63,337 nucleotides of DNA from Eubacteriales bacterium (lineage in GTDB: Bacteria; Bacillota; Clostridia; Oscillospirales; CAG-272), in contig JAZRAJ010000067.1 in the NCBI GenBank assembly GCA_045634485.1, positions 1 to 63,337 of the forward strand, in the 5' to 3' direction. The notes under the pieces are model-generated. The model saw nothing but the letters and a program-made list of their open reading frames with translations, did no database searches and was not told the origin of the DNA. Both the position numbers and the translations under genes were made by a program. This document shows, piece by piece, positions 29,514-53,054 of the stretch. Within the stretch, counting starts at the first letter, position 1. Every line of letters starts with the position of its first letter.

Positions 29514-31718
29514 ATGAAAGCCCTAAAAAAATCAGCAATATTACTACTTACCCTATCTATACTCCTCGGCTCAGTTGCGTGCGGAAAAAAGCTTGATGAT
29601 TCGTATTCCTCCGACTCGGGCGACGAATATTATTCCGACCTTAGCTCAAGCGACGGAAACGGTAATCAGCTTAACGATTCATCAAAGGAAACCATTGAGC
29701 ATATCGAGGGCTCGGGCATAGCATCAAAAACCGACTTCACTCGCTACACGATAATTGCAACGAAAAGCAACGCTCGTGCGCTTGATGCGGCAAACGGTCT
29801 TAGCGATAAGCTTGCCGACAAGGGCTTTTCCTTAGAGGTCAACAAGCGTTCGGTATATGAAATAATCATTGGAAACAACACGGCAAGTGAAACGAGAGAG
29901 GCAATAGATCAGCTCTCAAAATCCGACAAGGATTATCTTATTAAATTCTCGGGAACTAAAATCGTAATCGTTGCCAAAAACGATCTCGTTTTACCCGAGG
30001 CGTGCGATATGTTTTACGAAACCTATATCAAGGATATCAAAAACAAAACCCTTGAGGTTAAGGACGGCACTGCCACTCTCGGTATATCAAAGAACCTTAC
30101 CACGCTTGCCTACGACGGAGCCCTCCAATACGAAATAGTGCTTGGCAACGTTTCATCCGAGGTAAAGACAAGGGCTGCTGAGCTTGCTTCGTTTATAAAA
30201 ACGATGTGCGGTGTTACCTCGGTTAACTCAAGCGCTAAATACGATAAATCCAAAAAGCAGATACTTATAGGCCCTGCGGGCTTTAGCGAAACCTCCTCGG
30301 CAATAAGAAGTCTTGCAGACGATAAGGGCATTATTACCAAGATAGATAACAAAATAATAGTTGCGGGCAAGGACGATGCAACCACTATTGCGGCAATCGA
30401 CTCCTTTACAAGTCTTATAGAAAAGGCTAAGGGCAACAACTCAAAAAAGGGTAGCTATGCGATATCGATTACGAAATCGCTAATAGACACCTATTGCGCA
30501 AGCCTTGATTCTATTCCGAAATTCTCGGGCGCAACCTACTCGGCAACCTACCCCTCGGGCGACGGAATAAAGCAGCTTTACTATACCTCCGCAGATTCAA
30601 GCAAGATAAACGCATACGTTACTCAGCTTGCAAATCTCGGCTACAAAAAGGTTGAGGATAATTCGGTTAACGGCAACCGCTTCGTTACCTGCTACGGTAA
30701 AAACGGAATAGTTCATATCTCGTATCTAAATCACAATAAATCCCTGTCGGTAATTCTCGACTCTCTAAAAAATTCGGTTTACAAGGAATCGGAGCCCACC
30801 TACACCAAGGTAACTAATTCCTCGCTTGCCGTTATGTCGCTTGATTACGTATTAAACGATGAAACGCACAGAAGCGGAATGTCCTATATAATCACGCTTG
30901 AGGACGGAAGATATATTATTATCGACGGTGGATACAGAGATACGAACACAGGCTCAAGCGATGCATATATTATTTACAATTATATGAAAGACCACAATAA
31001 GCGTGCAGATAAAAAAATCATCATAGCCGCTTGGATATTCACGCACGACCACTCAGACCACCACGGTGCATTCTCGGAATTTGCAGGCAACTACTCCTCC
31101 AAGGCGGAAATACAGTATTATATTATGAACTGCGGAGATAAATCCAATTTCACACAAAAGCCAAGCGGTTGGCTTAACGGTGGACTTATCGACCTTATGA
31201 AGTCAAAATTTCCCTCGGCAAAGCTTATAATTCCGCATACGGGACAAAAGCTTACATTCTGTAATACTACCTTTGATATTCTTTCTACTCAAGAAAGCCA
31301 CACACCCAACAAAATGGAATGGGTTAACGATGCGTCAATAATTTTCAGTATGACATCAAATGGCGTAAGAACTCTCTTCCTTGCAGATGCCGAGGCTCAA
31401 ACCACAAAGCTTATTAACAATATGTACGGAAGCACTATAAAGAGTGACATTTTGCAGATAGCGCACCACGGATACAGTGGCGGCTCGGTTGACCTCTACA
31501 AAAAGGTTGATCCGCAGTGGACGATTTGGCCCACCTCTCAATCTGCATTTAACGAGCGAAAGGTTGGCTCGGGTAACGGCAATGCCCAGGCTCAAAATAA
31601 ATGGGCTGCTCAAAACTCAACCTGCTACGTTGCCGACGGTAAAATTGAGATACTTACCTTCATTGGCGGAAGCTCAAAGATATCCGTGTCTACCTATACG
31701 GCAAATTATAATAAATAA
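29514..31718 (+). CDS. Lipoprotein with ComEC/Pce-like MBL-fold hydrolase domain (paralog 1; duplicated N-terminal module)
   Basis: Lipobox SVAC; IIDGG, THDHSDH, NDAS, LFLAD, DILQIAHHG. Confidence 0.88.
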   Translation: MKALKKSAILLLTLSILLGSVACGKKLDDSYSSDSGDEYYSDLSSSDGNGNQLNDSSKETIEHIEGSGIASKTDFTRYTIIATKSNARALDAANGLSDKLADKGFSLEVNKRSVYEIIIGNNTASETREAIDQLSKSDKDYLIKFSGTKIVIVAKNDLVLPEACDMFYETYIKDIKNKTLEVKDGTATLGISKNLTTLAYDGALQYEIVLGNVSSEVKTRAAELASFIKTMCGVTSVNSSAKYDKSKKQILIGPAGFSETSSAIRSLADDKGIITKIDNKIIVAGKDDATTIAAIDSFTSLIEKAKGNNSKKGSYAISITKSLIDTYCASLDSIPKFSGATYSATYPSGDGIKQLYYTSADSSKINAYVTQLANLGYKKVEDNSVNGNRFVTCYGKNGIVHISYLNHNKSLSVILDSLKNSVYKESEPTYTKVTNSSLAVMSLDYVLNDETHRSGMSYIITLEDGRYIIIDGGYRDTNTGSSDAYIIYNYMKDHNKRADKKIIIAAWIFTHDHSDHHGAFSEFAGNYSSKAEIQYYIMNCGDKSNFTQKPSGWLNGGLIDLMKSKFPSAKLIIPHTGQKLTFCNTTFDILSTQESHTPNKMEWVNDASIIFSMTSNGVRTLFLADAEAQTTKLINNMYGSTIKSDILQIAHHGYSGGSVDLYKKVDPQWTIWPTSQSAFNERKVGSGNGNAQAQNKWAAQNSTCYVADGKIEILTFIGGSSKISVSTYTANYNK

Positions 31719-31782: not shown

Positions 31783-32271
31783 CTATTTTTTCTCAAATCC
31801 GTGTATAAATCCGCCTACGTTTGCAGAGCATACGTCACCGCCTATAACTTTATTTCTATAGACGATAATATTAGCATACACCTTTCCACTTTCCCCACCG
31901 TAATTAGTTATTTCATATGTATAACGCATAACGCTCTTACCCTTATATTTTGAAAGATCAAGCCCTTGGCGCTTTTGAATTTCGTTATATCCAACAAAAA
32001 TCTTATCAAATTTTTCGGGAATAGTTACCTCAACCTCCTCAACGGGATTTTCCTTAACGCTCCATCCAAACTGACTGAGAAAGGCAATTCTATCATCGTT
32101 AGTTTTTATTTTTGAATAATTGATATCAGCCTCACTACCCGTGGTTATGTACTTAAAATCTCCGCCGTCGTAGCTTGGTATAAAGGTTATCATCATAACG
32201 AGAGCCGTAAGAGCCACGCAGACCACCGCAAAGAATTTAAGCGTACTTGCCTTTAGTGAATATACAAACAT
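31783..32271 (-). CDS. DUF4830-like membrane-anchored protein
   Basis: FLSQFGW...IPEKFD...YNEIQKRQGLDLSKYKGK...YTYEITNY...IGGDV; ATG at 32271 after GGAGG. Confidence 0.75.
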   Translation of the reverse strand: MFVYSLKASTLKFFAVVCVALTALVMMITFIPSYDGGDFKYITTGSEADINYSKIKTNDDRIAFLSQFGWSVKENPVEEVEVTIPEKFDKIFVGYNEIQKRQGLDLSKYKGKSVMRYTYEITNYGGESGKVYANIIVYRNKVIGGDVCSANVGGFIHGFEKK

Positions 32272-32391
32272 AGCTTCCTCCAAAATTATTTTTTTAAAAA
32301 TTCTATTACATTTATATTCCCAAAGCCCCTTTTTATGAGCAATTATTATATAAATATAATAAAATATGATAAAAACTCAATAAAAAGAGAA

Positions 32392-32439
32392 AAAACATAT
32401 TGAAAACATATTGAAAAATCAATGTCAAAGTGTTATAAT
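32392..32439 (+). promoter_or_regulatory. sigma-A promoter of the catabolic operon with an 11-bp tandem repeat overlapping -35
   Basis: TTGAAA(32411)-N17-TATAAT(32434) with TG extension; AAAACATATTG x2 at 32392-32413. Confidence 0.65.
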
Positions 32440-32523: not shown

Positions 32524-33672
32524 ATGAGTAACGAAAAGAAGACAGTTCGCTTTGCCGTTATCGGTTGCGGACTTATGGGAAAAGAATTTGCCTGCGCCGT
32601 TGCGCGTTGGTGTCAGCTTAACGCCGATATGCCTAAGCCTATTATAGTTGGCGTTTGCGACCTAAGCGAGGACGCTCGTCGCTATTTTACAGACAACTTT
32701 GACACTGTAAAGTATAGCACCAACGATTACCACGAGCTTCTTGCGGCAGACGATATCGATGCGGTTTATTGCGCAGTTCCTCACAATCTTCATAAGAAAT
32801 TTTACATCGACATAATCAATGCAGGAAAGCATCTTCTTGCAGAGAAGCCCTTTGGTATAGACAAGGCAGACAACGATGCTATTATGGAGGCAATCAAAAA
32901 TCATCCCGAGGTAACGGTTCGTTGCTCAAGCGAATTTCCCTTCTTCCCCGGCGCACAGGAGATGGTACGCTGGATACAGTCGGGCGCATCGGGTAAGATA
33001 ATTGAAATTCGCTCTAACTTCCACCATTCAAGCGATATGGACACAACAAAGCCCATCAACTGGAAGCGTATGATTAATATAAACGGCGAATACGGATGCA
33101 TGGGCGACCTTGGTCTTCACGCAGAGCATATTCCCTTCCGTATGGGTTGGATTCCCGAGAGCGTTTCGGCATATCTTTCCGACATAGTTAAGGAGCGTCC
33201 CGACGGCAAGGGCGGAGTTGTTCCCTGCCTTACTTGGGATAACGCGCACCTCGTTTGCAACGTAAAGCAGGACGATGGCGAGTTCCCCATGATAATCGAA
33301 ATGAAGCGTATCTGCCCCGGCGCTACTAACTCTTGGAATATAGAGATAGACGGTCTTAAGCAGTCTGCACGCTTCTCCACCGACGATCCCAACGCATTCT
33401 ACTACACCGAGCCTCGCGGACGTGAGCAGGCGTGGTGCAGAGTTGACATTGGCTCTAAGCCTATGATACCCACTATTACGGGAAGCATATTTGAATTTGG
33501 ATTTTCCGATTCTATCCTTCAGATGTGGGCAACCTTCGTATGCGAGGTAGCGGGCATTCCCGTACCCTTCGGTTGCTTGCGCCCTGAGGAAACCGCACTT
33601 TCCCACAAGCTTCAAACTGCGGCTCTCATTTCCCACAAGGAACGCCGCGCAGTATCACTCTCGGAGGTTTAA
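32524..33672 (+). CDS. Gfo/Idh/MocA family NAD(P)-dependent oxidoreductase
   Basis: VIGCGLMG, AVPHNLH, HLLAEKP, GCMGDLGLH. Confidence 0.92.
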   Translation: MSNEKKTVRFAVIGCGLMGKEFACAVARWCQLNADMPKPIIVGVCDLSEDARRYFTDNFDTVKYSTNDYHELLAADDIDAVYCAVPHNLHKKFYIDIINAGKHLLAEKPFGIDKADNDAIMEAIKNHPEVTVRCSSEFPFFPGAQEMVRWIQSGASGKIIEIRSNFHHSSDMDTTKPINWKRMININGEYGCMGDLGLHAEHIPFRMGWIPESVSAYLSDIVKERPDGKGGVVPCLTWDNAHLVCNVKQDDGEFPMIIEMKRICPGATNSWNIEIDGLKQSARFSTDDPNAFYYTEPRGREQAWCRVDIGSKPMIPTITGSIFEFGFSDSILQMWATFVCEVAGIPVPFGCLRPEETALSHKLQTAALISHKERRAVSLSEV

Positions 33673-33678
33673 TTTATA

Positions 33679-35220
33679 ATGTTTAAAAACGTAAAGCAAT
33701 CATTAACGTCACTTTTAGGCGCTTCATATATGGAGGGCGTTGCCAGAGCAAACGATTTCTTTGGCAAAATGTCCTATGATGAGGCTATGGCTATCGCTAA
33801 CGAGGAGGTAAGCTTTTACGATGAGGCGGCTCAGGCTAAAAACGATGCGCTCCTCTCTAAGGTAGGCACTCAGGTTATCGAGCCTATGACTCCCGACAAC
33901 AACGACGGTGCGCCCACCGACGCATTTAGAAAGGCAGAAAACAAGGACGCATCCCCTCTCGGCGGCTACGGCTGCTTCCGCCTTGGCGAGGACGGCAAGC
34001 TCTACCTTATCGGTAAGAGTGAGCATTATCACGCGTCCCTCGGTCACGCATTCGCAGGCTATAAGCTCATAGACAATGCTCGCAAGCTTGGCGTGCTTAA
34101 CGCGACCCACAACAATACAAGAGGCTACATAACCCGCTTGCACGAGAGAAGAATCGTTGCGGCGGCAAACGGCGTTGACGATAGTGACGAGACGGCACTT
34201 GATGCGGTTATCGCATCCAAGGAAAAGGGTGTGCTTAACAGAACAATCAATCTTGAAACAGGCTCGCTTGCAGTTGAGGCAGGCGTTAAGATGATGCTTT
34301 CAAGATTCTATCATCTCTCCCCCGAGCTTCCCACGCCGAAGTATGCGGGCAAAACTCCTGTATTCTTCATTATGGCAGACGTTGCCGACGGAATTACGGG
34401 TAACTACCACGGAACCACGGTTCTTACTCAGACCTTTAGAGGTCTTTGGGAGGACTTCCGCGAGAAAGCCGAGGACGGTGGACTTTGGAAGGTTGTTTCG
34501 GTTCGCCCCAACGACGTAGAGGATTTCAAGGCAAAGCTTGAAAAATACAACAGTGGCAACTACAAAACCGCAGGCTTTATGCACGAGATTATTATGATGA
34601 ACTACGGCGCAACCAAGCTTGAGCCCGAGTATCTCAAAGCGGTATACGATCTTTGCCACGCTTGCGATACCCCCACTCTCTGTGACGAAATTCAAACGGG
34701 TATGTGGTACGATACGATATTCCTCTTCCGTAAGTACGGACTTAACCCCGACTTTGCGGTTATCGGTAAGGGCTTCCCCGGTGGCGAATATCCCGCAAGC
34801 CGTATTATAACCACCGCCGAGTACGATACTCTTAATCAGTTCGGCGCACTCGTTACAAACGGTCAGGAGGAGCTTGCATCGCTTGCATACCTCATCACCC
34901 TTAAATACGTTCAAGAGGCAGGCGACGAGCTTGACAGAGTTTCGAATATTTTTGAAAACGGATTCGTTGAGCTTTGCAAGAAGTATCCCGAAAAGCTTGT
35001 TAAGGCAAGCGGACTCGGCTACAACATCGCCCTCCACTTCCACAGCGTTGAGGCGGCTGCGGCGTTTACCCACGAGCTTCACGATGCGTGCATCGATGCC
35101 TCCGCTCAGCTTTACAAGGCAAACTGTGTGCCCGGCGTGCTCTTTAAGCCTCCGGTTATAACCACAGAGGCAACCGCAAGATATATTCTTACTGCTCTTG
35201 ACGAAATCTTAGCAAAGTAA
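33679..35220 (+). CDS. Class III PLP-dependent aminotransferase (atypical, 513 aa)
   Basis: TGSLAVEAGVK, NYHG, CDEIQTG, PDFAVIGKG (PLP Lys). Confidence 0.85.
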   Translation: MFKNVKQSLTSLLGASYMEGVARANDFFGKMSYDEAMAIANEEVSFYDEAAQAKNDALLSKVGTQVIEPMTPDNNDGAPTDAFRKAENKDASPLGGYGCFRLGEDGKLYLIGKSEHYHASLGHAFAGYKLIDNARKLGVLNATHNNTRGYITRLHERRIVAAANGVDDSDETALDAVIASKEKGVLNRTINLETGSLAVEAGVKMMLSRFYHLSPELPTPKYAGKTPVFFIMADVADGITGNYHGTTVLTQTFRGLWEDFREKAEDGGLWKVVSVRPNDVEDFKAKLEKYNSGNYKTAGFMHEIIMMNYGATKLEPEYLKAVYDLCHACDTPTLCDEIQTGMWYDTIFLFRKYGLNPDFAVIGKGFPGGEYPASRIITTAEYDTLNQFGALVTNGQEELASLAYLITLKYVQEAGDELDRVSNIFENGFVELCKKYPEKLVKASGLGYNIALHFHSVEAAAAFTHELHDACIDASAQLYKANCVPGVLFKPPVITTEATARYILTALDEILAK

Positions 35221-35267
35221 TTTTTATATACTGTAATCGTAATAAATTATAATAAAAGGAAAAGATT

Positions 35268-36746
35268 ATGTACTTTTTAGGTGTAGATATCGGATCGTCC
35301 TCAATTAAAACTGCGGTTTTAAGAGTATCCGAATTAGGTTTGCCCGACGCAATAATCGGAAAGGCAAATATCGACTATCCTACGTATTATCCGATAGACG
35401 ATTCCTCCGAGCAAAGCGCGGACGACTGGAACCACGCCGCTGCAGTAGCCATTAAGGGTGCGGTGGCATCAATGTCAACCGAGGAAAAAAACAAAATAGT
35501 AGGCATTTCCTTTTCATCGCAGGCGGGAAGCATTTACCCCGCGGATGAAAACAACAAGCCTCTTTACAACGCTCTTACCTGGATGGATCGCAGAGCGGTG
35601 GCTGAAAACGAGGAAAAGACGGCGGCGCTCGGCTTTGCCAACATAACCGATAAATCGGGTTGGAAGCCCACCCCTGCCGACTGTATCTCAAAGCTTTTGT
35701 GGCTTAAGAAGCACGAGCCCGAGGTATTTGCAAAGGCCAAGCATTTTTACACAACGCTTGAATCGGTAACGGGATTTCTTTGCGGAAGCTTTGTAACCGA
35801 CCCCACTAATATCGCTCTCACTCGTCTTTACGATTACAAGGCGGGCTGCTACATTCCCGAAGCGCTTGAATTCTTGGGTATTACCGAGGATATGCTACCT
35901 AAGGTTGCTCCCTGCGGAAGCCTTGCAGGTAAGCTTTTAAAGTCGGTAGCCGACAAATGTGGACTTCCCGAGGGTATTCCCGTATACGTTGGAGCGCACG
36001 ATCAGTATTGCGCATCGATTGGTAGCGGAGTTACCGAGCCCGGTCAGCTTCTTATAGCAACGGGAACTGCGTGGGTGCTTTTCGGCGTAGCAAATGCTCC
36101 TATTCAAAAGCAACCCTACCCCGCCCCCTGCAAGCATCCGATTGAAAACCGCTACGGCGTTATGACCTCCCTTGCGGGATGCGGTAAGGCAATAGGACTT
36201 CTTGCCTCTGAGTGCAATTGCACGGCGGCATCCTTTGACCTTGAAATTGAAATGAACGGCACGCAAACCTGCAGAGAGAAAAATAAAGACTATTTCGTTT
36301 GCTCACTTCCCGAGGGTATTGCCCTCCCGCACAGGAAGGGCGTTTGCAAGCCTATAGCTCTTGACGGTAAAAAGGCTCCCTACGAGGTGGCTCTTGCCGC
36401 TATGGAGAGTGCGGTGTTCGAGGCAAAATCGGTAATTGATGCATTTGAGGATGCAGGCTTTCCTCAGCGTGGCGAGCTTGTTATCTCGGGTGGTGCATCA
36501 AAGAGCCGACTTTGGACGGGTATAGTTGCGTCGGTATTCTCCGATAGACCCATCTGCCGTCTTGCAGAGCCCGATGCTCCCGCATTCGGTGCGGCTATGA
36601 TTGCGGCGGTAAGCGCAGGCGAGTTTGAATCTCTTACCAATGCGGCAAGACTCGTTCGCAGAATCCCCATCGAGCCCGATGCTAATGCCGCAGAGTTCTA
36701 CGCCGACAAGTATCGCAGATATTGCGATTGGGCGTTGGAAAAATAA
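35268..36746 (+). CDS. FGGY family carbohydrate kinase
   Basis: LGVDIGSSSIK, WMDRRA, GAHDQ, ATGT, SGGASKS. Confidence 0.93.
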   Translation: MYFLGVDIGSSSIKTAVLRVSELGLPDAIIGKANIDYPTYYPIDDSSEQSADDWNHAAAVAIKGAVASMSTEEKNKIVGISFSSQAGSIYPADENNKPLYNALTWMDRRAVAENEEKTAALGFANITDKSGWKPTPADCISKLLWLKKHEPEVFAKAKHFYTTLESVTGFLCGSFVTDPTNIALTRLYDYKAGCYIPEALEFLGITEDMLPKVAPCGSLAGKLLKSVADKCGLPEGIPVYVGAHDQYCASIGSGVTEPGQLLIATGTAWVLFGVANAPIQKQPYPAPCKHPIENRYGVMTSLAGCGKAIGLLASECNCTAASFDLEIEMNGTQTCREKNKDYFVCSLPEGIALPHRKGVCKPIALDGKKAPYEVALAAMESAVFEAKSVIDAFEDAGFPQRGELVISGGASKSRLWTGIVASVFSDRPICRLAEPDAPAFGAAMIAAVSAGEFESLTNAARLVRRIPIEPDANAAEFYADKYRRYCDWALEK

Positions 36747-36765
36747 TTTACGGAGGACAGTTATT

Positions 36766-37782
36766 ATGTTTGGTATAGACGTAACACCCTATGATAAAAA
36801 AATATGGGAGGAGGAGCTTCGCGACTTTCTTCCCGACAAGATATTTGACGCACATATGCACATTTGGGAGCCCGGCACTCGTAAGAGCGCACAAAAGGGA
36901 TGCGTAACCTGGACGTCAATCGTTGCCTCGGATATGACCTACGAAAATATGGTTGAAACCTATTCGCAGGTTTTCCCCGGAAAGCAGGTTAAGCAGATTC
37001 TTATGGCTTCTCCCTTGTGTAAGCTCGACGTAGCCAATGAATATGCGCTTAAACACGCAAAGGAGTTCGGTCACCCCGCCCTCTATTGCACGAATTGGGA
37101 CAGTGACGAATCTGAAATATTGATGGCTCTTAAAAGAGGCTTCTGCGGAATAAAGCCCTATCAAAACAACTCTCCCTCCTATATTCCTGCGGCAGAGGTA
37201 AGAATATTTGACTTCTTAACTCCCCGTCAGCTTGAGCTTATGGATAAGGTTCACGGAGTGGTTATGCTCCACATCTCGAGAAATCTCCGCTTGCGTGACC
37301 CGATAAACCTTGCTCAGCTTATGGAGATAGACGAAAAATATCCCAACGCAAAGGTTATAGTTGCTCACATTGGACGTGCATATATTCCGTCCGACGTTGG
37401 AGATGCCTTTGAGCTTCTCAAGCACACTAAAAATCTTTATTTCGATTTTTCGGCAAACACCTCCGACTACGCTATGCAAAAGCTCTTTGAGTCGATAAGC
37501 TCCGACCGTATTCTCTTCGGTACCGATATGCCATTCTCCAAGATGCGCATGTATAGAATTGAGGAAAACGGCACCTACGTAAACGTTGTTCCGAGAGGTC
37601 GCTACGGCGACGTATCAAACGACCCCCATATGAAGGAAAGCGACGAGGAGAATATAAGCACCTTCGTTTACGAGGAGCTTTTAGCCTTCAAGAGAGCCGC
37701 TACCGCCGTTGGATACACTCGTGAGGATATCGAAAAAATAATGTATAAGAATGCAGAAAAGCTCTTTGACTGTAAAATTTAA
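36766..37782 (+). CDS. Amidohydrolase-2 family metallohydrolase
   Basis: FDAHMH, VMLH, IVAHIG, ILFGTD.P; ATG at 36766 after GGAGG (ORF track start at 36625 overlaps the kinase). Confidence 0.88.
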   Translation: MFGIDVTPYDKKIWEEELRDFLPDKIFDAHMHIWEPGTRKSAQKGCVTWTSIVASDMTYENMVETYSQVFPGKQVKQILMASPLCKLDVANEYALKHAKEFGHPALYCTNWDSDESEILMALKRGFCGIKPYQNNSPSYIPAAEVRIFDFLTPRQLELMDKVHGVVMLHISRNLRLRDPINLAQLMEIDEKYPNAKVIVAHIGRAYIPSDVGDAFELLKHTKNLYFDFSANTSDYAMQKLFESISSDRILFGTDMPFSKMRMYRIEENGTYVNVVPRGRYGDVSNDPHMKESDEENISTFVYEELLAFKRAATAVGYTREDIEKIMYKNAEKLFDCKI

Positions 37783-37798
37783 ATAAGGAGAAGATAAA

Positions 37799-39196
37799 AT
37801 GAACAAGACTAAAATAGGTTTTTTACCTTTTTATATTAAGCTCTACGATGATTGCGGAAGCGGAGCAAAGGCTCGCCCCCGTCTTGAGCCCTTTGCGGAC
37901 AGACTTGTAAACGAGCTTACCGACAGAGGCTTTGACGTGCTTGCAGTTCCCTTTTGCAGAATTAAGGAGGAATTTGCGGCGGCGGTTGCAAAATTTGAGG
38001 CTGAGGGCTGCAAGGCAATAGTTACCTGGCATGCGGCTTACTCCCCCTCTCTTGAATCAATCGATGCGCTTGCATCCACCGAGCTTCCGATAGTTGTTCT
38101 TGACACCACCGAAACCTATTCCATGGGCCCCACCCTCGAGCAATTTGAGATAAGCCTTTGCCACGGTATTCACGGTGTTATGGATATGTGCAGTATGCTC
38201 AACCGCAGAGGTAAAGCGTTTGCTATTGCGGCAGGACACATCGAGCATTCCGACGTAATGGATAAAACCGCAGGCTATATCCGCGCGGCGGTTGCGGCAA
38301 AGGCTATGAACGGCTCTAATACCGGTAGCATTGGCGGCAGCTTTGACGGAATGGGTGACTTTTTGGTTGAGGATGCCGAAATGCTCGAGCGCTTTGGCGT
38401 TAAGGTTATTTACCCCGAGCAGGGCGAGCTTGCAAAATACAGAGCCGAGGTAAGCGAGGATGACGTTAAGGCAGAAATGCAGAAGGACCTTGACACTCTT
38501 TACGAGATAGAGCCCGTTGACGCAGAGTCACACGCTCGCACCGCTCGCAACTGTCTTGCGGTTAGACGCTGGATAGAGGAAAGAAAACTTTCGGCTATGA
38601 CGGTTAACTTTAGAGAGATTACCGACGCAACGGGTCTTGAAATCATGCCCTTTATGGAGGCGTGCAAGGCTATGGCTCGCGGTACGGGATATGCAGGCGA
38701 GGGCGACGTTCTCACGGCTTCGCTCGTTGGCGCTCTTATGAAGGGCTACGATGAGGTAGCGTTTATCGAGATATTCTGCCCCGACTGGAAGGGCAACACT
38801 CTTCTCCTCTCCCACATGGGCGAGTACAACCCCAATCTTACCTCGGGTAAGTGCGGAATGAAGGAAATCCCCTTTATTTACGGTGATGCTAAGAGCCCCG
38901 TGGTTTCCTACGGTAGATACAAGGGTGGCGATGCGGTGTTTATAAACCTCTACCGCACCAAGGACGACTTCCGCATGATAATCTCTGCCGTTGATATGGT
39001 TGAGGTAAGACCCGACGACGATACTCTTGAGGTACGTGTTCGCGGTTGGATGAAGCCCAAGATGCCTATTGCCGACTTCCTTGAGGCTATTAGCCGTGTT
39101 GGCGCAACACACCATAGCGCACTCGTTTACGGTGCAACCGTTTCTGAATTGGTTTACTTTGCAGACCTTCTCGGAATAGGATACGATATCGTTTAA
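37799..39196 (+). CDS. L-fucose/L-arabinose isomerase-like protein
   Basis: GYAGEGD, LLSHMGE, GATHHSAL motifs of the AraA/FucI fold. Confidence 0.8.
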   Translation: MNKTKIGFLPFYIKLYDDCGSGAKARPRLEPFADRLVNELTDRGFDVLAVPFCRIKEEFAAAVAKFEAEGCKAIVTWHAAYSPSLESIDALASTELPIVVLDTTETYSMGPTLEQFEISLCHGIHGVMDMCSMLNRRGKAFAIAAGHIEHSDVMDKTAGYIRAAVAAKAMNGSNTGSIGGSFDGMGDFLVEDAEMLERFGVKVIYPEQGELAKYRAEVSEDDVKAEMQKDLDTLYEIEPVDAESHARTARNCLAVRRWIEERKLSAMTVNFREITDATGLEIMPFMEACKAMARGTGYAGEGDVLTASLVGALMKGYDEVAFIEIFCPDWKGNTLLLSHMGEYNPNLTSGKCGMKEIPFIYGDAKSPVVSYGRYKGGDAVFINLYRTKDDFRMIISAVDMVEVRPDDDTLEVRVRGWMKPKMPIADFLEAISRVGATHHSALVYGATVSELVYFADLLGIGYDIV

Positions 39197-39255
39197 TATC
39201 GTTATATTTTAATTTGTTTTAAAAAATATTTTTTACATAAAAGGAGTACAAAACA

Positions 39256-40089
39256 ATGCTTGTAAATCTTGATTACGTTCTTAAAAGAGCCCAGGAGGGC
39301 GGATATGCGGTTGGTCTTTTCAACACCACCGACACAGATATGCTTGAGGGTGTTCTCGCAGCTGCAGAGGAGCTTCGCGCTCCCGTTATTATCGGTACTG
39401 CAGAGGTTCTTCTTCCCTACGGCGAGCTTAAGCTCATCGCTCCCTCTGTAAGAGCAGCCGCTGAGCGTGCAACCGTTCCGGTAGTTCTTCACTATGACCA
39501 CGGTCTTACCGTTGAGAGATGCATCGAGGCTCTTGACCTCGGCTTCACATCCATTATGTTTGACGGTAGCGCAGGCGACCCCGAAAACAATATCGAGCTT
39601 ACCCGTAAGGTAGTTGAAATGTGCCACGCAAAGGGCGTTACCGTTGAGGGCGAAATCGGCCACGTTGGAAACGCAGACGTTGAGGGCGACCAGGAAAACA
39701 ACTACACCACCCCCGAGGAGGCAAAGGCATTCATCGAGGCTACCGGTGTTGACGCACTTGCAGTTGCAATCGGTACCGCACACGGCGCATACAAGAAGAA
39801 GCCCTGCCTTGACCTTGAAAGACTTGCGGCTATCAGAGCCGAGGTTGACACTCCCCTCGTTCTTCACGGCGGAAGCGGTCTTACCGACGATGATTTCCGT
39901 AACACCATAAAGAACGGTATTGCTAAGGTTAACATCTTTACCGACCTCTGCCTCGCAGGCGCGCGCGCTTGTAAGAAGGGTCTTGAGGACAAGGTTGGAT
40001 ACCTTGAAATGAGAAACCTTAAGGTTGCAGAAATCAAGGCTGAAACCATGAAGAAGATGAAGGTATTCGGCTGCGACGGCAAGGCTTAA
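39256..40089 (+). CDS. Class II fructose/tagatose-bisphosphate aldolase family protein
   Basis: VVLHYDHG, SIMFDGS, VEGEIGHVG, AVAIGTAHG, LVLHGGSG, KVNI.T. Confidence 0.95.
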   Translation: MLVNLDYVLKRAQEGGYAVGLFNTTDTDMLEGVLAAAEELRAPVIIGTAEVLLPYGELKLIAPSVRAAAERATVPVVLHYDHGLTVERCIEALDLGFTSIMFDGSAGDPENNIELTRKVVEMCHAKGVTVEGEIGHVGNADVEGDQENNYTTPEEAKAFIEATGVDALAVAIGTAHGAYKKKPCLDLERLAAIRAEVDTPLVLHGGSGLTDDDFRNTIKNGIAKVNIFTDLCLAGARACKKGLEDKVGYLEMRNLKVAEIKAETMKKMKVFGCDGKA

Positions 40090-40128
40090 TTGCCATATCT
40101 GCTTATATAATTAATAAGGAGAATAATT

Positions 40129-41940
40129 ATGAAGGCTGCACTAACAAGAGCTATAGCTATACTTTTGTTGCTCTGCGCGTTCCCTCTTGCTCTTTTCTCC
40201 TGTGTAAGTACTGACTCAAATGACGATGGCGTAAACAACGATACGATTACGGACGATTCCTACACCGACGCTACGGATGATACCGAAGCCGCAACCGAAA
40301 CCGATGCGGCAGGTACGATTACGTTATTTAAAAACGGAAAATACGTAGCGCGTGTGGTTCGCTCCGAGTATGCCTCTGAAAACGACAGGCTTGCGTACAA
40401 CGAGTTAAAGTCTGACCTCAAGTCAAAAACCGGTAAGGCGGTAATGACCTCAACCGATTTTGTGGCAGCAGGAACAACGCTTGACGATTCCTCGGCTATA
40501 CTCGTTGGCGAAACCGAATATGCGGAATCAAAGGCGGTTTACGAATCATTAAAAAGAGATACGGCAGTTGCGCAAATAGTAAACAACAAATACGTAATCG
40601 CCTTTTCACACATAGAAGCTCTTGTGAAGCTTTTTGAAAGGCTAAAGGAAAAAATCGCGAATGCAAATGCGGAGGAAATCGTGATAGATTCAAGCTGGAA
40701 CATAACAATAGAGCCCACCGTTGCAAGCAGCATAAAGCTTCCAAGCTTTGCGGGCAAGGCTCTTGGCTCTGCCATTGACCTTGGTCAGGGCTCGTCGCTT
40801 TACATAGTAAATAACGCCTCAATGCAAGGATTTAATGATTATAACGAGGAGCTTGTAAGCCTCGGCTTTGAGCTTTACACACAAAATTCTATCGCAGGTA
40901 ACGAGTATAGAACCTATACCTCCAAAAAGCAGATAGTAAACGTTATCTATCTTAAATACTACAACGAGGTTAGAATTATTGAGGACAACCGTGACACAAT
41001 CGAGCTTCCCGCACTTAAGGTGGACAACGTTTACGAGAAGACCTCTACTCCCTCCTTTACCATGATGGGAATTTCCGATGCGGGCTACCCCGGTGGAATG
41101 AGCTTTATTTTTAAGCTTTCGGACGGTACCTTCTTTATCATTGACGGCGGTATGTGCGCAAACCGTACAGGCTCAAATCAATGTAAGAACGAGCCCTCTA
41201 TTCACAGACTCTTTAAGACTCTTCAGGACCTTGCAGACGACCCCAACAACATAGTTATTTCGGGTTGGCTCATAACACACATCCACAACGACCACGCAGG
41301 TGCGTTTATTGACCTTGGCGAAAATCCCGGATATGCAAGCAGAGTAACCATAAAGCAGGTTATCTACAGTCAGCCCGCAGATTCGGATATGACCGACGGC
41401 AATCAGCCCTACCGTCTTGATTGGATGCCCAACGCTCTTGAAAAGCTTAAGATTACAAAAACGGTAAAGGCACACCCCGGTCAGGTATTCTACTTTGCGG
41501 ATCTTACGCTTACCATACTTGGTACTCACGACCTTGTCAAGCCCGATAAGATAACAAGCCACAACAATGCATCTATCGTTTCTATGGTAGAGTTCGGCGG
41601 AAAGAAGATGCTCTTCCTTGCCGATGCAGAGGGTGCTTCAAACAATAAGCTTGATAAGATTTACGGCGATGAGCTTAACGCCGACATTCTTCAGGTTGCT
41701 CACCACGGCTACAACAACACCGAGGCAGGTGTGGTTTACAACTACGTAACCCCCTCGATAGTTCTTTGGCCTATTCAAACAAGCGACTGGAAGTCGGGCG
41801 CAAACGTATACAACGTTTCCTTTAACAAATCTCATTTTGATAAGGCAGGCATTGCGCACTACGTTGGCGGAGATGCAAACACTACCTTTGAGGACCTTAC
41901 TACATGGATTCCTACAAGGCAGAATTGGAAGCCGCTATAA
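40129..41940 (+). CDS. Lipoprotein MBL-fold hydrolase (paralog 2)
   Basis: Lipobox LFSC; IIDGG, THIHNDH, NNAS, LFLAD, DILQVAHHG; 39 bp after the aldolase. Confidence 0.88.
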   Translation: MKAALTRAIAILLLLCAFPLALFSCVSTDSNDDGVNNDTITDDSYTDATDDTEAATETDAAGTITLFKNGKYVARVVRSEYASENDRLAYNELKSDLKSKTGKAVMTSTDFVAAGTTLDDSSAILVGETEYAESKAVYESLKRDTAVAQIVNNKYVIAFSHIEALVKLFERLKEKIANANAEEIVIDSSWNITIEPTVASSIKLPSFAGKALGSAIDLGQGSSLYIVNNASMQGFNDYNEELVSLGFELYTQNSIAGNEYRTYTSKKQIVNVIYLKYYNEVRIIEDNRDTIELPALKVDNVYEKTSTPSFTMMGISDAGYPGGMSFIFKLSDGTFFIIDGGMCANRTGSNQCKNEPSIHRLFKTLQDLADDPNNIVISGWLITHIHNDHAGAFIDLGENPGYASRVTIKQVIYSQPADSDMTDGNQPYRLDWMPNALEKLKITKTVKAHPGQVFYFADLTLTILGTHDLVKPDKITSHNNASIVSMVEFGGKKMLFLADAEGASNNKLDKIYGDELNADILQVAHHGYNNTEAGVVYNYVTPSIVLWPIQTSDWKSGANVYNVSFNKSHFDKAGIAHYVGGDANTTFEDLTTWIPTRQNWKPL

Positions 41941-41955
41941 CTAAAAAATAAAATT

Positions 41956-41999
41956 ACCGCTTTTCTATCGATAATTTGATAGGAAAGCGGTGCTTTTTT
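41956..41999 (+). terminator. Intrinsic terminator
   Basis: accgcttttctatc ... gataggaaagcggt plus T tract. Confidence 0.75.
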
Positions 42000-42000: not shown

Positions 42001-42029
42001 TTGACAATATCGCAATTATGTGTTATAAT
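42001..42029 (+). promoter_or_regulatory. Consensus sigma-A promoter
   Basis: TTGACA-N17-TATAAT with TG extension. Confidence 0.8.
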
Positions 42030-42086: not shown

Positions 42087-42986
42087 ATGAAAAATAAAGA
42101 AAAATCGCTTGTTATTATGGCGGCGGGGCTTGGCTCTCGCTACGGCGGAAATAAGCAGGTTGATAGGATAGGGCCCGACGGCGAAATCCTTATGCAATAC
42201 TCTATTTTCGACGCTATAAAGGCAGGCTTTACAAAGATAGTTTTTATAATAAAGCCCGAGTACACCGAGCTTATCAATGAAATATCGGCAGATGCAAGGC
42301 TAAACGGAATAAAAATAGATATCGCTTATCAGGATTTTTCATCAATCCCCGACTTCTACAAAATTCCCGACGGCAGAACCAAGCCCTTTGGCACTGTTCA
42401 CGCAGTCCTTTCGGCAAAGGATGCTATAAACGAGCCATTTGCAATCATCAACGCCGACGATTTTTACGGCAGAAACGCATTTATCGCTATGAGCAAGGCG
42501 CTCGACGATGCCTCGTCGGGCAAGGGCGCTATGGTTGCCTACGAGCTTAAGAACACGGTAAGCAAAAACGGCTCGGTAACGAGAGGCGTTTGCAAAACCG
42601 AAAATCAAATCCTTACCGATATAGTTGAGGTTTTTGATATCACACTTTCAAGCGACGGCACTATAAGCGATAAAACGATTGGAGTCCTTGACCCGCTTAC
42701 ACCCGTTTCAATGAATATGTGGGGATTTACGCCCGATATTCTTGACGCTATGGAGGCATCATTTTGCGAATTTCTAAGTCAAATACAGGATGGCGACCTT
42801 AAATCCGAGTATCCTCTGCCCTCGTTTATCGGCAAGGAGATAAATCAAGGCAGACTAACAATTAAGGTCTACACCACGGACGCCGAATGGTTTGGCGTAA
42901 CCTACGCCGAGGATAGACCCGCAGTTGCGGAGCGTCTGAACAATATGAAGAAAAATAACGCCTATCCGGCGAAACTAAAGCTTTGA
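42087..42986 (+). CDS. Sugar-phosphate nucleotidyltransferase (NTP_transferase family)
   Basis: MAAGLGSRYGGNKQ, KPFGTVHAV, INADDFYG, SMNMWGF, WFGVTY. Confidence 0.9.
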   Translation: MKNKEKSLVIMAAGLGSRYGGNKQVDRIGPDGEILMQYSIFDAIKAGFTKIVFIIKPEYTELINEISADARLNGIKIDIAYQDFSSIPDFYKIPDGRTKPFGTVHAVLSAKDAINEPFAIINADDFYGRNAFIAMSKALDDASSGKGAMVAYELKNTVSKNGSVTRGVCKTENQILTDIVEVFDITLSSDGTISDKTIGVLDPLTPVSMNMWGFTPDILDAMEASFCEFLSQIQDGDLKSEYPLPSFIGKEINQGRLTIKVYTTDAEWFGVTYAEDRPAVAERLNNMKKNNAYPAKLKL

Positions 42987-43006: not shown

Positions 43007-44809
43007 ATGAAGCTTAAATTTATAGCATCAATTCTTGTTGTGGCAACCTTTTGCCTTTCACTTTTCTCTTGCTCGCCAAACTTTAATTTGGGCTTTGAGC
43101 TTGACAGTGACGAATCATTTTTTGACCCAAACGTTGACACCGACAACGGCCTCATTCTTCCCACGGATAAGGCTACCGATAACGTTAACGCAACAAGCAA
43201 AGCAACCGAAAAGATTCCCTCAGGCGCATTCCTTTTGTTCCAGAGCGGAAGCTACAAGGTTAAGGCAATTATGCCCGATAGACCTACGGATATTGAGAAC
43301 ACCGTTTACGCAAAGCTTCGCTCCAAGATGAAGAGCAAAATCGGAACGACTCTCCAGACGAACACCGACTATCTCGTAACCGGTCAGAGCCATTCCTCCA
43401 CTGCTCCCGAAATTCTCGTTGGACTTACCAACTACGAGGAATCTAAGGAGGTATACGGAGATATTACCTACGGAACCTACGGTATAAAGATTATCGGAAA
43501 GAAGATAGTTTTCTACTTCTCCACCCTTGACGAGGGACTTGAGCTTGTTGACTCCTTCATCTCGTCTATAAAGTCAAACGCCGACAACGCTTACTGGGTA
43601 AGCAACACCCTCTCGGTATCCAACAGCTTGGAGTTTAAGACCGAGAGCATTCCGAAGTATCCTACGTCGACAACCTCCTACAATTGCTACGACGATACTA
43701 CGATGCTTCTTGCAAAGAGCTCTAACCTTACCGATTTCAACACCTATTGCAGTAATCTTACAAGCAACGGCTTTACAGAGTATTCAAAGCGTGATAACGT
43801 AAACGGAAACTACTTCCGCACCTACACCAAGGGTACTATGGCTCTCACGGTTTACTTTAACAAGAGCGATAGTAGCGTACGTATAATTTCCGGTCCTCTT
43901 ACGGATATTCCGCCTAAGAATACAACGGCGGCTAAGGAGGTAGATGATGTAACTCCCTCAGTTTCCTTGATTTATCAGGGCGTAAAGAACGACGGAACAA
44001 CCAAGCAGGGCTCGGGCCTTGGTATGGTATTCCTCCTTCCCAACGGCAAATTCATTATCTACGACGGTGGTTATTACGCAAATAACGAGCTTTACAACAC
44101 ACTCGTTAAGCTTGCAGGCGACAACGATATTATTATTGCCGCTTGGATAATCTCTCACCCTCACCCCGACCACGAGCAGGCCTTTGACGTATTCCTTAAG
44201 AACCACGCAAAGGACATAAGAATAGAAACCGTAATGTATAACTTTACAAGCGCATCGGATGATTACGGAACGTCGGAAACCATCAAGCCCTATATTGAGC
44301 AATATCTTGACGGCAAGACCGTTGTTGTTAAGCCACACACGGGACAGATTTACAATTTCGGTAATTCCACGGTAGAAATTCTCCACACCGTTGAGGACTT
44401 TATGCCTAAGGCGGTAACCGACTTGAACTGGTCGACTATGGTAGTAAGAGTAACGGTTGAGGGCAAGTCTACCTTGTTGCTCGGCGACGCTTACGATGAT
44501 GTAGCCCCCTTCTTAACAAAGACCTACGGCTCATATCTTAAATCGGATATGGTTCAGCTTGCGCACCACGGAACATCTCCCGGAACCGAGGCGCTTTACA
44601 GTAACATCAACGCGCAAATTCTCTTCTGGCCCTCCGATGAGGTTAACGCAAGGAAGCGCTACGGCTCAAGCGGACACGAATCCTTAACCAAGGCAATCAG
44701 TGTCGCAAAGGACGTTTACCTTGCAAGTGAGGGTACCGTAACGCTTACCATTCCCTGCACCATCCAAAATAATAAGGATGCTTTCTTAAAGAGAGTGGGA
44801 CTTAAGTAA
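43007..44809 (+). CDS. Lipoprotein MBL-fold hydrolase (paralog 3)
   Basis: Lipobox LFSC; IYDGG, SHPHPDH, LLLGD, DMVQLAHHG. Confidence 0.88.
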   Translation: MKLKFIASILVVATFCLSLFSCSPNFNLGFELDSDESFFDPNVDTDNGLILPTDKATDNVNATSKATEKIPSGAFLLFQSGSYKVKAIMPDRPTDIENTVYAKLRSKMKSKIGTTLQTNTDYLVTGQSHSSTAPEILVGLTNYEESKEVYGDITYGTYGIKIIGKKIVFYFSTLDEGLELVDSFISSIKSNADNAYWVSNTLSVSNSLEFKTESIPKYPTSTTSYNCYDDTTMLLAKSSNLTDFNTYCSNLTSNGFTEYSKRDNVNGNYFRTYTKGTMALTVYFNKSDSSVRIISGPLTDIPPKNTTAAKEVDDVTPSVSLIYQGVKNDGTTKQGSGLGMVFLLPNGKFIIYDGGYYANNELYNTLVKLAGDNDIIIAAWIISHPHPDHEQAFDVFLKNHAKDIRIETVMYNFTSASDDYGTSETIKPYIEQYLDGKTVVVKPHTGQIYNFGNSTVEILHTVEDFMPKAVTDLNWSTMVVRVTVEGKSTLLLGDAYDDVAPFLTKTYGSYLKSDMVQLAHHGTSPGTEALYSNINAQILFWPSDEVNARKRYGSSGHESLTKAISVAKDVYLASEGTVTLTIPCTIQNNKDAFLKRVGLK

Positions 44810-44820
44810 AATAAAAAACA

Positions 44821-44854
44821 AAAGGACTCTTGAAAAATCAGGAGTCCTTTTTTT
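44821..44854 (+). terminator. Intrinsic terminator
   Basis: aaaggactc-ttga..tca-ggagtccttt plus T tract. Confidence 0.78.
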
Positions 44855-45057
44855 ATTTTTGCAGTTTATATAATATATATTGTAAGAATTGTAATTTTAA
44901 CCAAATAAATAAGTACCTTTTTGTTAATTGATACAAGCAAAATCTATTGACTAATTTGCATTTTTTTGGTATAATATAATGAGGAAAATAGTATGAATTT
45001 ATCTATTTTTTCGGTAAATAACAAAAGACTCTGCCAAACGGTCAGAATCTTTAAATG

Positions 45058-45076
45058 TGGCACCCGCAACGGGAAT
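45058..45076 (-). repeat. 19-bp direct repeat of the tRNA-Arg 3' end (att-like / tRNA-linked repeat)
   Basis: tggcacccgcaacgggaat identical to 45221-45239. Confidence 0.85.
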
Positions 45077-45220
45077 TTGTTCCGCCTTTAATTGCTTTCA
45101 TCACGAAAGCGGCGGACCAATGTGGCGAACCCTATTCCGCTTCGCTTCGCTCGCGGAGTGGCTTCTCCTTGCACGGGTTATATCAAAAAATCCCCACCCT
45201 TCGGGCAGGAATTTTTGATA

Positions 45221-45295
45221 TGGCACCCGCAACGGGAATCGAACCCATAACTAACCCTTAGGAGGGGCTTATTATATCCATTTAACTATGCAGGC
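45221..45295 (-). tRNA. tRNA-Arg (CCT)
   Basis: Reverse complement GCCTGCATAGTTAAATGGATATAATAAGCCCCTCCTAAGGGTTAGTTATGGGTTCGATTCCCGTTGCGGGTGCCA: anticodon loop CT-CCT-AA, GGTTCGATT T-loop, encoded CCA; upstream TTGAAA-N17-TATAAT. Confidence 0.93.
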
Positions 45296-45378
45296 GTAAC
45301 CACAAACAGTATTATAACACAGAAATTAATTTTTTTCAATATAAAATTTTAAAAAATATTTTGCAAAAGGAGGTATTT

Positions 45379-47268
45379 ATGAAAATTAAATCAAAGCTAT
45401 TTTCCCTGCTTCTATGCTTGGTAATAGCCTCTACCTCTCTCGTATCCTGTGCAAATAACATCATCGAACCAAATCAAAACGATACGACGAGTCCAAGCAA
45501 CAACGACTCTCAAGACTCTACAGTAGACGAAGAAAAAAATCTAATACTTTACAATAACGGCGAATACACCGCAAAATTCATAATGCCCGACACTGCGTCG
45601 GATATCGAAAAGGCGGTTTACGCAAAGCTCCGTAGCACTATAAAAAACAAAATAAAGGCAGACGTTACCTACAACACCGACATTATTTCCACGGAGGTCG
45701 AGCGTGACCCCGATGAAAACGCCGTGTTGCTTGGAAACACCAACTACGAGGAATCAAAGCAAGCCTACGAAAATATGAATTACGGCGACTACGCAATAAA
45801 GGTTATAAACAACAAAATCGTTTTATCCTTTACCGCAAAGGCTGACGGCAACGAGCTTGTTGAGCTACTCTCAAAGGCGATAAAAACCAACGACGAGGGA
45901 TGCTATTGGGTACCCCGCTCCTTCTCGGTAGTAAAGCAAGCACTCCCCCAGCTTAACGGACTTCCAAAATATCCGTCAAGCGATACCTCACTCGTTGACT
46001 GTAATGACAGTACGTCAATGATAGTTGCCAACCGCACAACCTTAAATGACTTTAATGGCTATTGCGCAGAGCTTGAAAAATTGGAATTCACGCTCAACAC
46101 TTACCGTGACAACGTAAACGGCAACTACTTCCGCACCTACGTTAAGGGCGGACTTGCGGTAACCGCTTACTTTACGCCCTCCTCAAAGACGGCTCGTATA
46201 ATAGCAGGACCCGCAACCGACATTCCAAGCAACGTAAAGGACGAAACGCCCGAAACGGTTGCTCCCTCGCTTACGATTCTTTCGCAGGGCGAGAGATACG
46301 ATAACGGTCTTGGAATGGTTTATCTCTTACCCAACGGAAAATTCCTTATAATTGACGGTGGATACGTAAGAGGAAAAAATCTTTACAACATTCTTGAGGA
46401 CTTAGCGCCAAACAAAAACGAGATTGTGATTGCCGCTTGGTACATATCGCACACTCACGGCGACCATCAGCAATCGATAACCTCATTCTTAAGAGAGCGA
46501 TACAAAAACGTTAAGCTTGAAAGCGTTCTTTACAACTACACCACAACCGAGCAATATAATGCGATAACCACGGGTGCCGAGGGCGCAAGCAGTGCAAAGG
46601 GCTTTGACAATACGATATTTAATTATCTTAACGGTACCGATACAAAGATAATCAAGCCTCACTCGGGTCAGATATACACATACGGCTCTGCAACGGTTGA
46701 AATAATGTATACCGTAGAGGACGTATTACCTAAGGCGCTTGACTACCTTAACACCTCTTCCTTGGTTGTTCGCGTAACGATTGGAGAGCATACGATGCTC
46801 GCGCTTGCCGACACAACGCACGTTTCGGGAGATATACTCCGAAATATGTACGGCTCGTATCTTGAATCGGATATGGTTCAGCTTGCTCACCACGGTACCT
46901 ACCCCGGCTACGCAAGCCTCTATAGCACGATTAAGGCGCCAATACTTATATGGCCCTCGAACCTAACCAATGCAAAGACGCAGATAAGCAACAGTGCGGT
47001 GGCAACAGCGGTAAACTACGCAACCGACATATATCTGGCAAACTCAGGAAACGTAACGCTCACGCTCCCCTACACGCCAATTAACAACAAGCAAGAATTT
47101 TTAGATAGCCTTAACGGCACTAACAATAATAAGCCTGCTGAAGATAATACCGGTAATACAGGTAACACTGATAATACAGGAAATACAGGAAATACAGGCA
47201 GCTCAAGCAATACAAGCAATAAAGTAAATGGAGGAAATGAAGAAAATGAAGAAGACCTTGATGATTAA
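45379..47268 (+). CDS. Lipoprotein MBL-fold hydrolase (paralog 4) with Asn/Thr/Gly-rich tail
   Basis: ATG 45379 after AGGAGG; lipobox LVSC; SHTHGDH, LALAD, DMVQLAHHG. Confidence 0.88.
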   Translation: MKIKSKLFSLLLCLVIASTSLVSCANNIIEPNQNDTTSPSNNDSQDSTVDEEKNLILYNNGEYTAKFIMPDTASDIEKAVYAKLRSTIKNKIKADVTYNTDIISTEVERDPDENAVLLGNTNYEESKQAYENMNYGDYAIKVINNKIVLSFTAKADGNELVELLSKAIKTNDEGCYWVPRSFSVVKQALPQLNGLPKYPSSDTSLVDCNDSTSMIVANRTTLNDFNGYCAELEKLEFTLNTYRDNVNGNYFRTYVKGGLAVTAYFTPSSKTARIIAGPATDIPSNVKDETPETVAPSLTILSQGERYDNGLGMVYLLPNGKFLIIDGGYVRGKNLYNILEDLAPNKNEIVIAAWYISHTHGDHQQSITSFLRERYKNVKLESVLYNYTTTEQYNAITTGAEGASSAKGFDNTIFNYLNGTDTKIIKPHSGQIYTYGSATVEIMYTVEDVLPKALDYLNTSSLVVRVTIGEHTMLALADTTHVSGDILRNMYGSYLESDMVQLAHHGTYPGYASLYSTIKAPILIWPSNLTNAKTQISNSAVATAVNYATDIYLANSGNVTLTLPYTPINNKQEFLDSLNGTNNNKPAEDNTGNTGNTDNTGNTGNTGSSSNTSNKVNGGNEENEEDLDD

Positions 47269-49057: not shown

Positions 49058-49072
49058 TATTAATTTAAAAAT

Positions 49073-50923: not shown

Positions 50924-50949
50924 CACCTTTAAATATCACAGAGGTAAAA

Positions 50950-52779: not shown

Positions 52780-52792
52780 TTTATATATTTCA

Positions 52793-53054
52793 CGGGGAAG
52801 AAAGCTTTTTTTGAAAAAAGCTTTTCTTCCACGTAACCCCATTTTCAAAAAACTTTGAAAATGGGGTTTTATTTTTTGCTGTTATTAGTGCGCTCGACGG
52901 TTGAGAGCGGTGTGTTCGCACCGCACCCTATCAGAAAGTTTTTAGTCAAGTTTTTTTCAAAAAACTTGCGGGCTTGGGCAGAGCCCATAAAACGGCGTTT
53001 TCTTTTTGCCAAACTTTTTCTTTGCGCCTCTCGTGCCAAAGAAAAAGCGGTATT
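52793..53054 (+). repeat. Dispersed repeat copy 3
   Basis: Same modules and core as copies 1 and 2. Confidence 0.9.

Follow-up and report, generated by a model that had tools for sequence, protein, structure and literature searches.

The L-arabinose, L-fucose and L-rhamnose routes (AraA–AraB and FucI–FucK–FucA) share an aldose–ketose isomerase and an FGGY kinase and are often controlled by DeoR. A related design is found in a six-enzyme operon on contig JAZRAJ010000067.1 of a Eubacteriales bacterium, analysed over a stretch of 63,337 nucleotides (the window) from an assembly of 1.84 Mb (81% complete), the relatives of which belong to uncultured gut Clostridia. The operon isomerase keeps the catalytic residues of AraA, but isomerase and kinase are 22–23% identical to E. 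coli AraA and FucK, far under the curated cut-offs. The operon also differs in having a TIM-barrel class II aldolase in place of FucA, and in encoding a pyridoxal phosphate (PLP) enzyme, an Amidohydro_2 hydrolase and a Gfo/Idh/MocA dehydrogenase (Gfo). Four of these enzymes form a conserved core that matches no characterised pathway, with a lower route of the familiar isomerase–kinase design. Our tentative interpretation is that the operon serves to degrade an aldose that carries an amine; once the sugar is phosphorylated, the PLP enzyme, most likely an acceptor-free ammonia-lyase, would remove the amine.

Other described systems resemble the operon in part. The sulfo-EMP2 and sulfo-SFT pathways (SqvD/SftI, SqiK, SqiA) and the E. 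coli Ydj cluster use an isomerase, a kinase and a class II aldolase on an unusual sugar; to our knowledge, none of them has a PLP enzyme or an Amidohydro_2 protein, and the operon isomerase scores 22 bits against the SftI model, whose cut-off is 700. The phospho-lyases ETNPPL and PHYKPL share the class III fold and the logic of a kinase plus a PLP enzyme, PHYKPL being paired with a kinase, and the lyase PbfA shares the fold and likewise lacks GabT residues R141, E211 and R398. Lyases of the PbfA and ETNPPL type work by 1,2-elimination without an acceptor. However, the operon enzyme reaches 48.9 bits against the PbfA model (NF049939; cut-off 525), has Ser where PbfA has Lys438, is no closer in template-modelling score (TM) to these lyases than to transaminases and lies in a sugar context. 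The closest folds to the hydrolase are COG3618 amidohydrolases (LigI, the presumed L-fuconolactonase 4dlf and Atu3138, 4mup, whose activity we also assume; Z 21–22), but at 13–16% identity. An azasugar cluster (GabT1, a phosphatase and GutB1; PMC8382821) pairs a dehydrogenase with an aminotransferase whose substrate is a phospho-ketose; that cluster is biosynthetic and uses a phosphatase, whereas the operon has a kinase, an isomerase and a hydrolase, and no phosphatase gene among its six. A full-text literature search, with most subscription journals outside its coverage, returned no description of this gene set.

Conservation of the gene set

Scanning species genomes with a pattern gave 142 confirmed relatives of the PLP enzyme (33679–35220; 513 residues). 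The best 80, representing 79 loci and 47–97% identical to it, were kept, so this main-family set leans towards near relatives. The kinase gene (35268–36746) accompanies the PLP gene in 73 of the 79 loci, followed by the genes for Gfo (32524–33672) in 54, the hydrolase (36766–37782) in 53, the isomerase (37799–39196) in 48, DeoR in 30 and the aldolase (39256–40089) in 28. Less frequent partners are a second, GH109-like Gfo (25), solute-binding-like lipoproteins (15) and ThrE-type exporters (8–9). In the 40 loci flanked by 6 kb or more on both sides, the kinase is present in all 40, the hydrolase and isomerase in 33 each, Gfo in 31, the aldolase in 21 and DeoR in 18. The PLP gene lies immediately before the kinase gene in 68 of 73 loci, including a split clade, and the hydrolase gene abuts the isomerase gene in 42 of 47. 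The 16 split loci adjoin ruvB and mostly hold only the PLP and kinase genes; all five split genomes tested carry the isomerase (57–61%) and Gfo (58–61%) elsewhere, and the hydrolase gene adjoins the isomerase gene in all four regions examined.

The association extends beyond close relatives. An even draw of 399 other Clostridia genomes (one not scored) yielded eight matches to the PLP enzyme (∼2%). In seven of these, the PLP, kinase, hydrolase and isomerase genes all lie within 10 kb, and the contig of the eighth stops after the kinase gene; a Gfo orthologue is present in one of the eight loci and the aldolase in none. A profile search also recovered a sister subfamily of the PLP enzyme, 26–31% identical, from environmental metagenomes. 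Among the best 80 of its 242 loci, the hydrolase occurs in 49, the isomerase in 43, the kinase in 39, an SSS symporter in 32, DeoR in 30 and Gfo-like matches in seven, with neither the aldolase nor the lipoprotein found downstream of it in the window occurring in any. Where 4 kb is available on both sides (22 sister loci), hydrolase, isomerase and kinase are each present in 18. Among 81 related genomes, the PLP enzyme and Gfo are present in an identical set of 10 genomes, nine of which have the isomerase; the isomerase also occurs without the PLP gene in four genomes at 40–46% identity and in three at 23–27%.

The conserved core therefore consists of the PLP enzyme, the Amidohydro_2 protein, the AraA-like isomerase and the FGGY kinase, and Gfo and the aldolase are variable add-ons. 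A preliminary description of this stretch had taken all six enzymes as one unit, to be abandoned if they were not co-conserved elsewhere or mapped with high identity to a known pathway. The four-gene core recurs in gut Clostridia and environmental loci, and none of the six enzymes reaches a curated equivalog cut-off for a named activity; a co-conserved unit does exist, but only four of the six enzymes belong to its core. Other genomes appear to exchange the last steps for transketolase or other aldolases; a split transketolase, an RraA-like aldolase or MtlD-like genes are found beside other copies instead. The same description found no transporter or regulator in the cluster. This is correct for the window, and a search at E ≤ 1e-6 detected no DeoR orthologue in the assembly (81% complete), but both kinds of gene are common elsewhere: importers, DeoR/LacI regulators and glycosidases adjoin other copies, whose neighbours include GH20, GH3, GH1, GH2, O-acetylesterase and GH109-like genes.

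One carrier is cultured. Subdoligranulum variabile TSDC17.2-1.1 (OY725846.1; locus L100, 4161–16690) encodes the PLP enzyme (52%), Gfo (57%), the aldolase (49%) and an AraA-like protein, with genes for a DegT aminotransferase, a DHDPS-like protein and an aldo-keto reductase on the opposite strand.

Predicted chemistry of the enzymes

The model of the PLP enzyme (predicted local distance difference test, pLDDT, 90) has the class III fold at ∼20% identity to any solved structure. Foldseek gave a TM of 0.67 to PatA and 0.62–0.63 to the phospho-lyases 6tor and 5g4i, a comparison that does not separate lyases from transaminases. We mapped residues by alignment with E. coli GabT, PatA and BioA, using 80 main-family and 70 sister unique rows. 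The cofactor set is intact: the PLP lysine K364, the pyridine-binding D336, the stacking aromatic Y243 and the phosphate-site T393 correspond to GabT K268, D239, Y138 and T297, and G195–S196 supply the Gly–Ser of the phosphate site. These residues mark the protein as a class III (fold-type I) PLP enzyme; it belongs to an uncharacterised Aminotran_3 subfamily. The position of BioA R391, which we take to match the pyruvate arginine of pyruvate-type class III transaminases, is Ser475 in all 80 main-family rows. GabT R141 and the gateway residues E211 and R398, which according to PMC8154272 mark 2-oxoglutarate transaminases and are all missing from the lyase PbfA, are replaced by T246, N308 and L488 in 79–80 of the 80 main-family and 66–70 of the 70 sister rows. 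The enzyme is therefore not a 2-oxoglutarate transaminase of a known type (GabT, PatA, ArgD or OAT).

Both subfamilies share H116, H144, Q251, R254 and K490, and of these H116, H144, R254 and K490 could bind phosphate or act as an acid. K490 and R148 presumably correspond to phosphate-binding residues of phospho-lyases, a likeness that we did not count as evidence. Kinase–PLP fusion candidates compared for the same question yielded no motif of use here. Three proteins (P0251, P0264 and P0269) belong to a third class III group, in which Asp stands in place of the gateway Glu, the gateway Arg is missing and a Lys matches K490. Judged from the residues of the operon PLP enzyme, an ammonia-lyase is our first, still tentative, choice for its chemistry; a transaminase with an unusual acceptor site is nearly as probable, and an epimerase seems unlikely. 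The class III PLP lyases described so far are few, and none is known from the literature covered here to act on a sugar.

The hydrolase (338 residues), a metal TIM barrel, starts at the ATG at 36766, which is preceded by GGAGG; a TTG at 36625 was rejected in its favour. Its DxHxH motif, K130, H169, H201 and D254, together with an arginine-rich set (R172, R175, R204, R261 and R264), are conserved across 50 sequences whose identity falls as low as 25%. The model (pLDDT 96) is nearest to 4dlf, 4i6k and 4mup of the COG3618 group (Z 21.8–21.4, root-mean-square deviation 3.0–3.4, 245–259 aligned residues, 13–14% identity), with 4dlf giving Z 21.8 at a deviation of 3.0 over 254 residues and 13% identity. 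The NagA-type structure 6fv3 falls below this group (Z 14.2), and the hydrolase has no NCBIfam match to a NagA-type deacetylase. Weak L-fuconolactonase matches were obtained for 16 of the 50 members (best E 2.5e-4). Because the closest fold is lactonase-like, N-deacylation by this enzyme is unproven; with identities this low and Z scores tied, the structural neighbours show its fold and not its reaction.

The isomerase (465 residues) was previously described as AraA/FucI-like, but it is AraA-like and not FucI-like (99 versus 29 bits). Residues E301, E324, H339 and H439, kept in 30 of 30 rows, correspond to AraA E306, E333, H350 and H450, to which we attribute the catalytic and metal-binding roles. 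The pocket is altered, with AraA Q16, F83, Q125 and Y335 all replaced, and the score against the AraA equivalog is 123.5 bits (cut-off 622). The kinase (492 residues) forms its own FGGY subfamily with a GAHDQY motif; its best model is XylB, and it falls short of the cut-offs for XylB (220 versus 380 bits), FucK (112 versus 471) and AraB (108 versus 428). Its sequence does not discriminate between a 1-kinase and a terminal kinase. Gfo (382 residues), an NAD oxidoreductase, best matches scyllo-inositol/L-glucose and levoglucosan dehydrogenases (E 1e-19 to 1e-24).

The accessory aldolase (277 residues) scores 264 bits against TIGR00167, the class II ketose-bisphosphate aldolase subfamily (cut-off 215.6), and 274 against TIGR01859 for fructose-1,6-bisphosphate aldolase (FBA), where 343 is required. 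Ser49 of FBA binds the 6-phosphate, according to PMC10665668, and the operon enzyme has Ala at this position; a distal Arg is present here and lost in the operon orthologues of 50% identity. YdjI is the nearest structure match, with SqiA also listed. A housekeeping FBA role was rejected for the genus, most members of which have a separate copy at 36–39% identity. The operon aldolase is the only copy found in G000 and in the 95%-complete G008, and no class II aldolase copy was found in the 97%-complete G044. The same aldolase clade (61–71%) also lies behind an XRE-HTH–PfkB fusion in ten genus members (L250–L259), sometimes with a D-lyxose isomerase, and near GH123 and GH127 genes in two. The PfkB, lyxose-isomerase and GH123 neighbours at these other loci are suggestive only of a tagatose-type specificity.

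Candidate pathways and substrates

In the sequence of reactions that we tentatively favour, the Amidohydro_2 protein would unmask the sugar by opening a lactam or lactone or by removing an N-acyl group. The AraA-like enzyme would then isomerise the amino-aldose and the FGGY kinase phosphorylate the resulting amino-ketose. The PLP enzyme would next take off the amine, Gfo would reduce the new carbonyl, and the aldolase would split the ketose 1-phosphate into dihydroxyacetone phosphate and an aldehyde. Gene content, co-conservation, folds and residue patterns are what was observed; each step of the scheme is predicted. Catabolism of an amine-bearing sugar is probable, in keeping with the amino-sugar pathway of the preliminary description, which survives as a conserved uncharacterised catabolic unit but loses the role it gave to the lipoprotein. 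A catabolic context is likely, given the DeoR, solute-binding-like lipoprotein, SSS symporter and glycosidase neighbours and the presence of a kinase and not a phosphatase. Removal of the amine after phosphorylation is somewhat favoured.

An AraA-type isomerase requires free C1 and C2, which would put the amine at C3–C6, and GH109-type enzymes require a free C3 hydroxyl. From these two rules we guess at a 4-amino aldose of L-arabino or D-galacto configuration, such as L-Ara4N or D-Fuc4N(Ac), although any such specific assignment is improbable. L-Ara4N and Fuc4NAc occur in bacterial glycans, and the GH20, GH3, GH109-like and O-acetylesterase genes nearby speak for N-acetylated glycans.

Several observations weigh against this scheme. 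The loci are related and partly redundant through kinship and duplicates, so their counts are not independent, and the substrate is indicated by neighbour genes only. The sister loci pair the genes differently: in their most frequent layout the hydrolase gene, not the kinase gene, lies next to the PLP gene. Reaction order cannot therefore be read from gene order, and the order given above is a guess. In 69 of 70 sister rows, Arg occupies the position of BioA R391, consistent with a pyruvate-type transaminase, and the majority of class III enzymes characterised so far are transaminases (PMC8154272). The hydrolase need not serve an amine, because it occurs with an isomerase and a kinase in two clusters that lack the PLP gene (L101, 186–9559, and L102, 7120–15194). 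These clusters combine it with a TIM-like protein, an AraA-like isomerase, an FGGY kinase, an FSA/transaldolase and DeoR, and also hold MFS or SIS and UPF0047 genes; hydrolase, isomerase and kinase can thus operate where this PLP enzyme removes no amine. Finally, the arginine-rich site, the lactonase-like fold and a GH2 neighbour fit an anionic substrate.

The alternative that fares best, although we consider it somewhat less likely than this scheme, places deacylation and transamination first, with Gfo reducing the keto-sugar to an ordinary aldose (Fuc3NAc to D-fucose, for example) that would pass through isomerase, kinase and aldolase as in the deoxy-sugar routes. This order gives all six enzymes a role. 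It agrees with the similarity of Gfo to inositol and sugar C3 dehydrogenases, with the identical profiles of Gfo and the PLP gene in the 81 genomes, and with the pyruvate-type Arg and the hydrolase–PLP gene adjacency of the sister group. However, the main family lacks every mapped oxo-acid anchor, Gfo lies within 10 kb in only one of eight class-draw loci and has matches in only seven of 80 sister loci, and the hydrolase fold is farther from NagA than from the lactonases.

Less likely again, the substrate would be the acid, lactone or lactam of an amino sugar, or else an oxidised iminosugar, with the Amidohydro_2 protein acting on an anion as a lactonase, lactone isomerase or decarboxylase. 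The nearest structures (4dlf, 4i6k and 4mup), the five kept arginines, the weak L-fuconolactonase matches and a glucuronidase-like GH2, present in seven sister loci and pointing to acids, all suit such a substrate, and in azasugar synthesis ketose phosphates are substrates of class III enzymes (PMC8382821). Against it, structural matches at 13–14% identity with tied Z scores speak for the fold only, and an AraA-type isomerase requires an aldose. A biosynthetic unit, in which the aldolase makes a ketose phosphate for the PLP enzyme to aminate, has the GabT1 precedent, the lack of a transporter in the window cluster and the ThrE-type exporters in its favour, but is very unlikely given the kinase in place of a phosphatase, the importers, regulators and glycosidases beside other copies and the absence of the aldolase from all 80 sister loci.

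Transcription, the downstream lipoprotein and implications

The six enzyme genes are co-oriented on the + strand with gaps of 6, 47, 19, 16 and 59 bp, and 39 bp separate the aldolase gene from a gene for a metallo-β-lactamase (MBL)-fold lipoprotein (40129–41940, + strand). Upstream is a sigma-70-type promoter (TTGAAA-17-TG-TATAAT, 32411–32439, + strand) with an 11/12 match and an extended −10 element. It is conserved in all five related upstream regions examined, two of them at a different chromosomal locus; promoter-like sites over the whole region are at chance level (34 found, 26.8 expected). The gap before the lipoprotein gene has no stable hairpin (z −0.7), and an intrinsic terminator follows that gene at 41955–41992 (+ strand, z −8.3). 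The layout previously reported, with tightly packed genes behind one promoter, the lipoprotein gene 39 bp beyond the aldolase gene and the first clear terminator at 41956, thus holds. Contigs from four gut metatranscriptome runs, which as contigs cannot prove a single transcript, cover all six genes in relatives. One contig spans 40078–40812 with only 12 letters inside the aldolase gene, under the bridging rule, and in another run a contig exits the aldolase gene into a different sequence. Read-through into the lipoprotein gene, as also proposed earlier, is likely in this lineage judging from the gap.

The lipoprotein has a lipobox and an intact MBL metal motif, as do 10 paralogues in the window. 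In the window these form a tandem array of 11 paralogues (29514–31718 and 43007–62902), 26–35% identical to the protein at 40129 and all with metal motifs; the assembly has 18 matched stretches, and arrays occur in other species of the genus. Orthologues (60–78%) follow the aldolase gene in four other genus species, and the loci checked all share one syntenic block. In G017, the operon lies at another location with a hairpin (z −5.4) right behind the aldolase gene, and similar lipoproteins are arrayed on another contig. The protein is likely a lineage-specific neighbour outside the pathway. The earlier proposal that it frees the substrate from a phosphodiester-linked polymer could appeal to the intact lipobox and metal motif, to gaps of 26–39 bp without a terminator in four loci and to the PLP gene in seven of the eight other genus genomes with a strong lipoprotein match, a co-occurrence that shared ancestry may explain, but is highly improbable for a protein directly behind the aldolase in three of 79 main-family and none of 80 sister loci, with so many paralogues, separated from the operon in G017 and 62–81% identical where the enzymes keep 79–99%.

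The operon is flanked by a divergent DUF4830 gene (31783–32283, − strand), which 62 of 72 genus genomes share, most often next to typA, and, beyond the terminator, by a nucleotidyltransferase gene (42087–42986) with a perfect consensus promoter (42001–42029) and a 42% paralogue on contig C111.

The distribution of the core reaches from gut Clostridia (∼2% of the drawn genomes) into environmental bacteria. It is possible, if doubtful, that it represents an undescribed, cross-lineage means of scavenging rare amino sugars from bacterial glycans, such as L-Ara4N and Fuc4NAc, in which a new class III PLP family of sugar-phosphate ammonia-lyases would be coupled to the FGGY kinase and the amidohydrolase would catalyse a new reaction. 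Either a sugar-phosphate lyase or a transaminase lacking the known acceptor anchors would be new enzymology, and the cultured S. variabile carrier makes the operon testable. This reading, if correct, would also show what becomes of the amino sugars in the surface glycans of gut bacteria.

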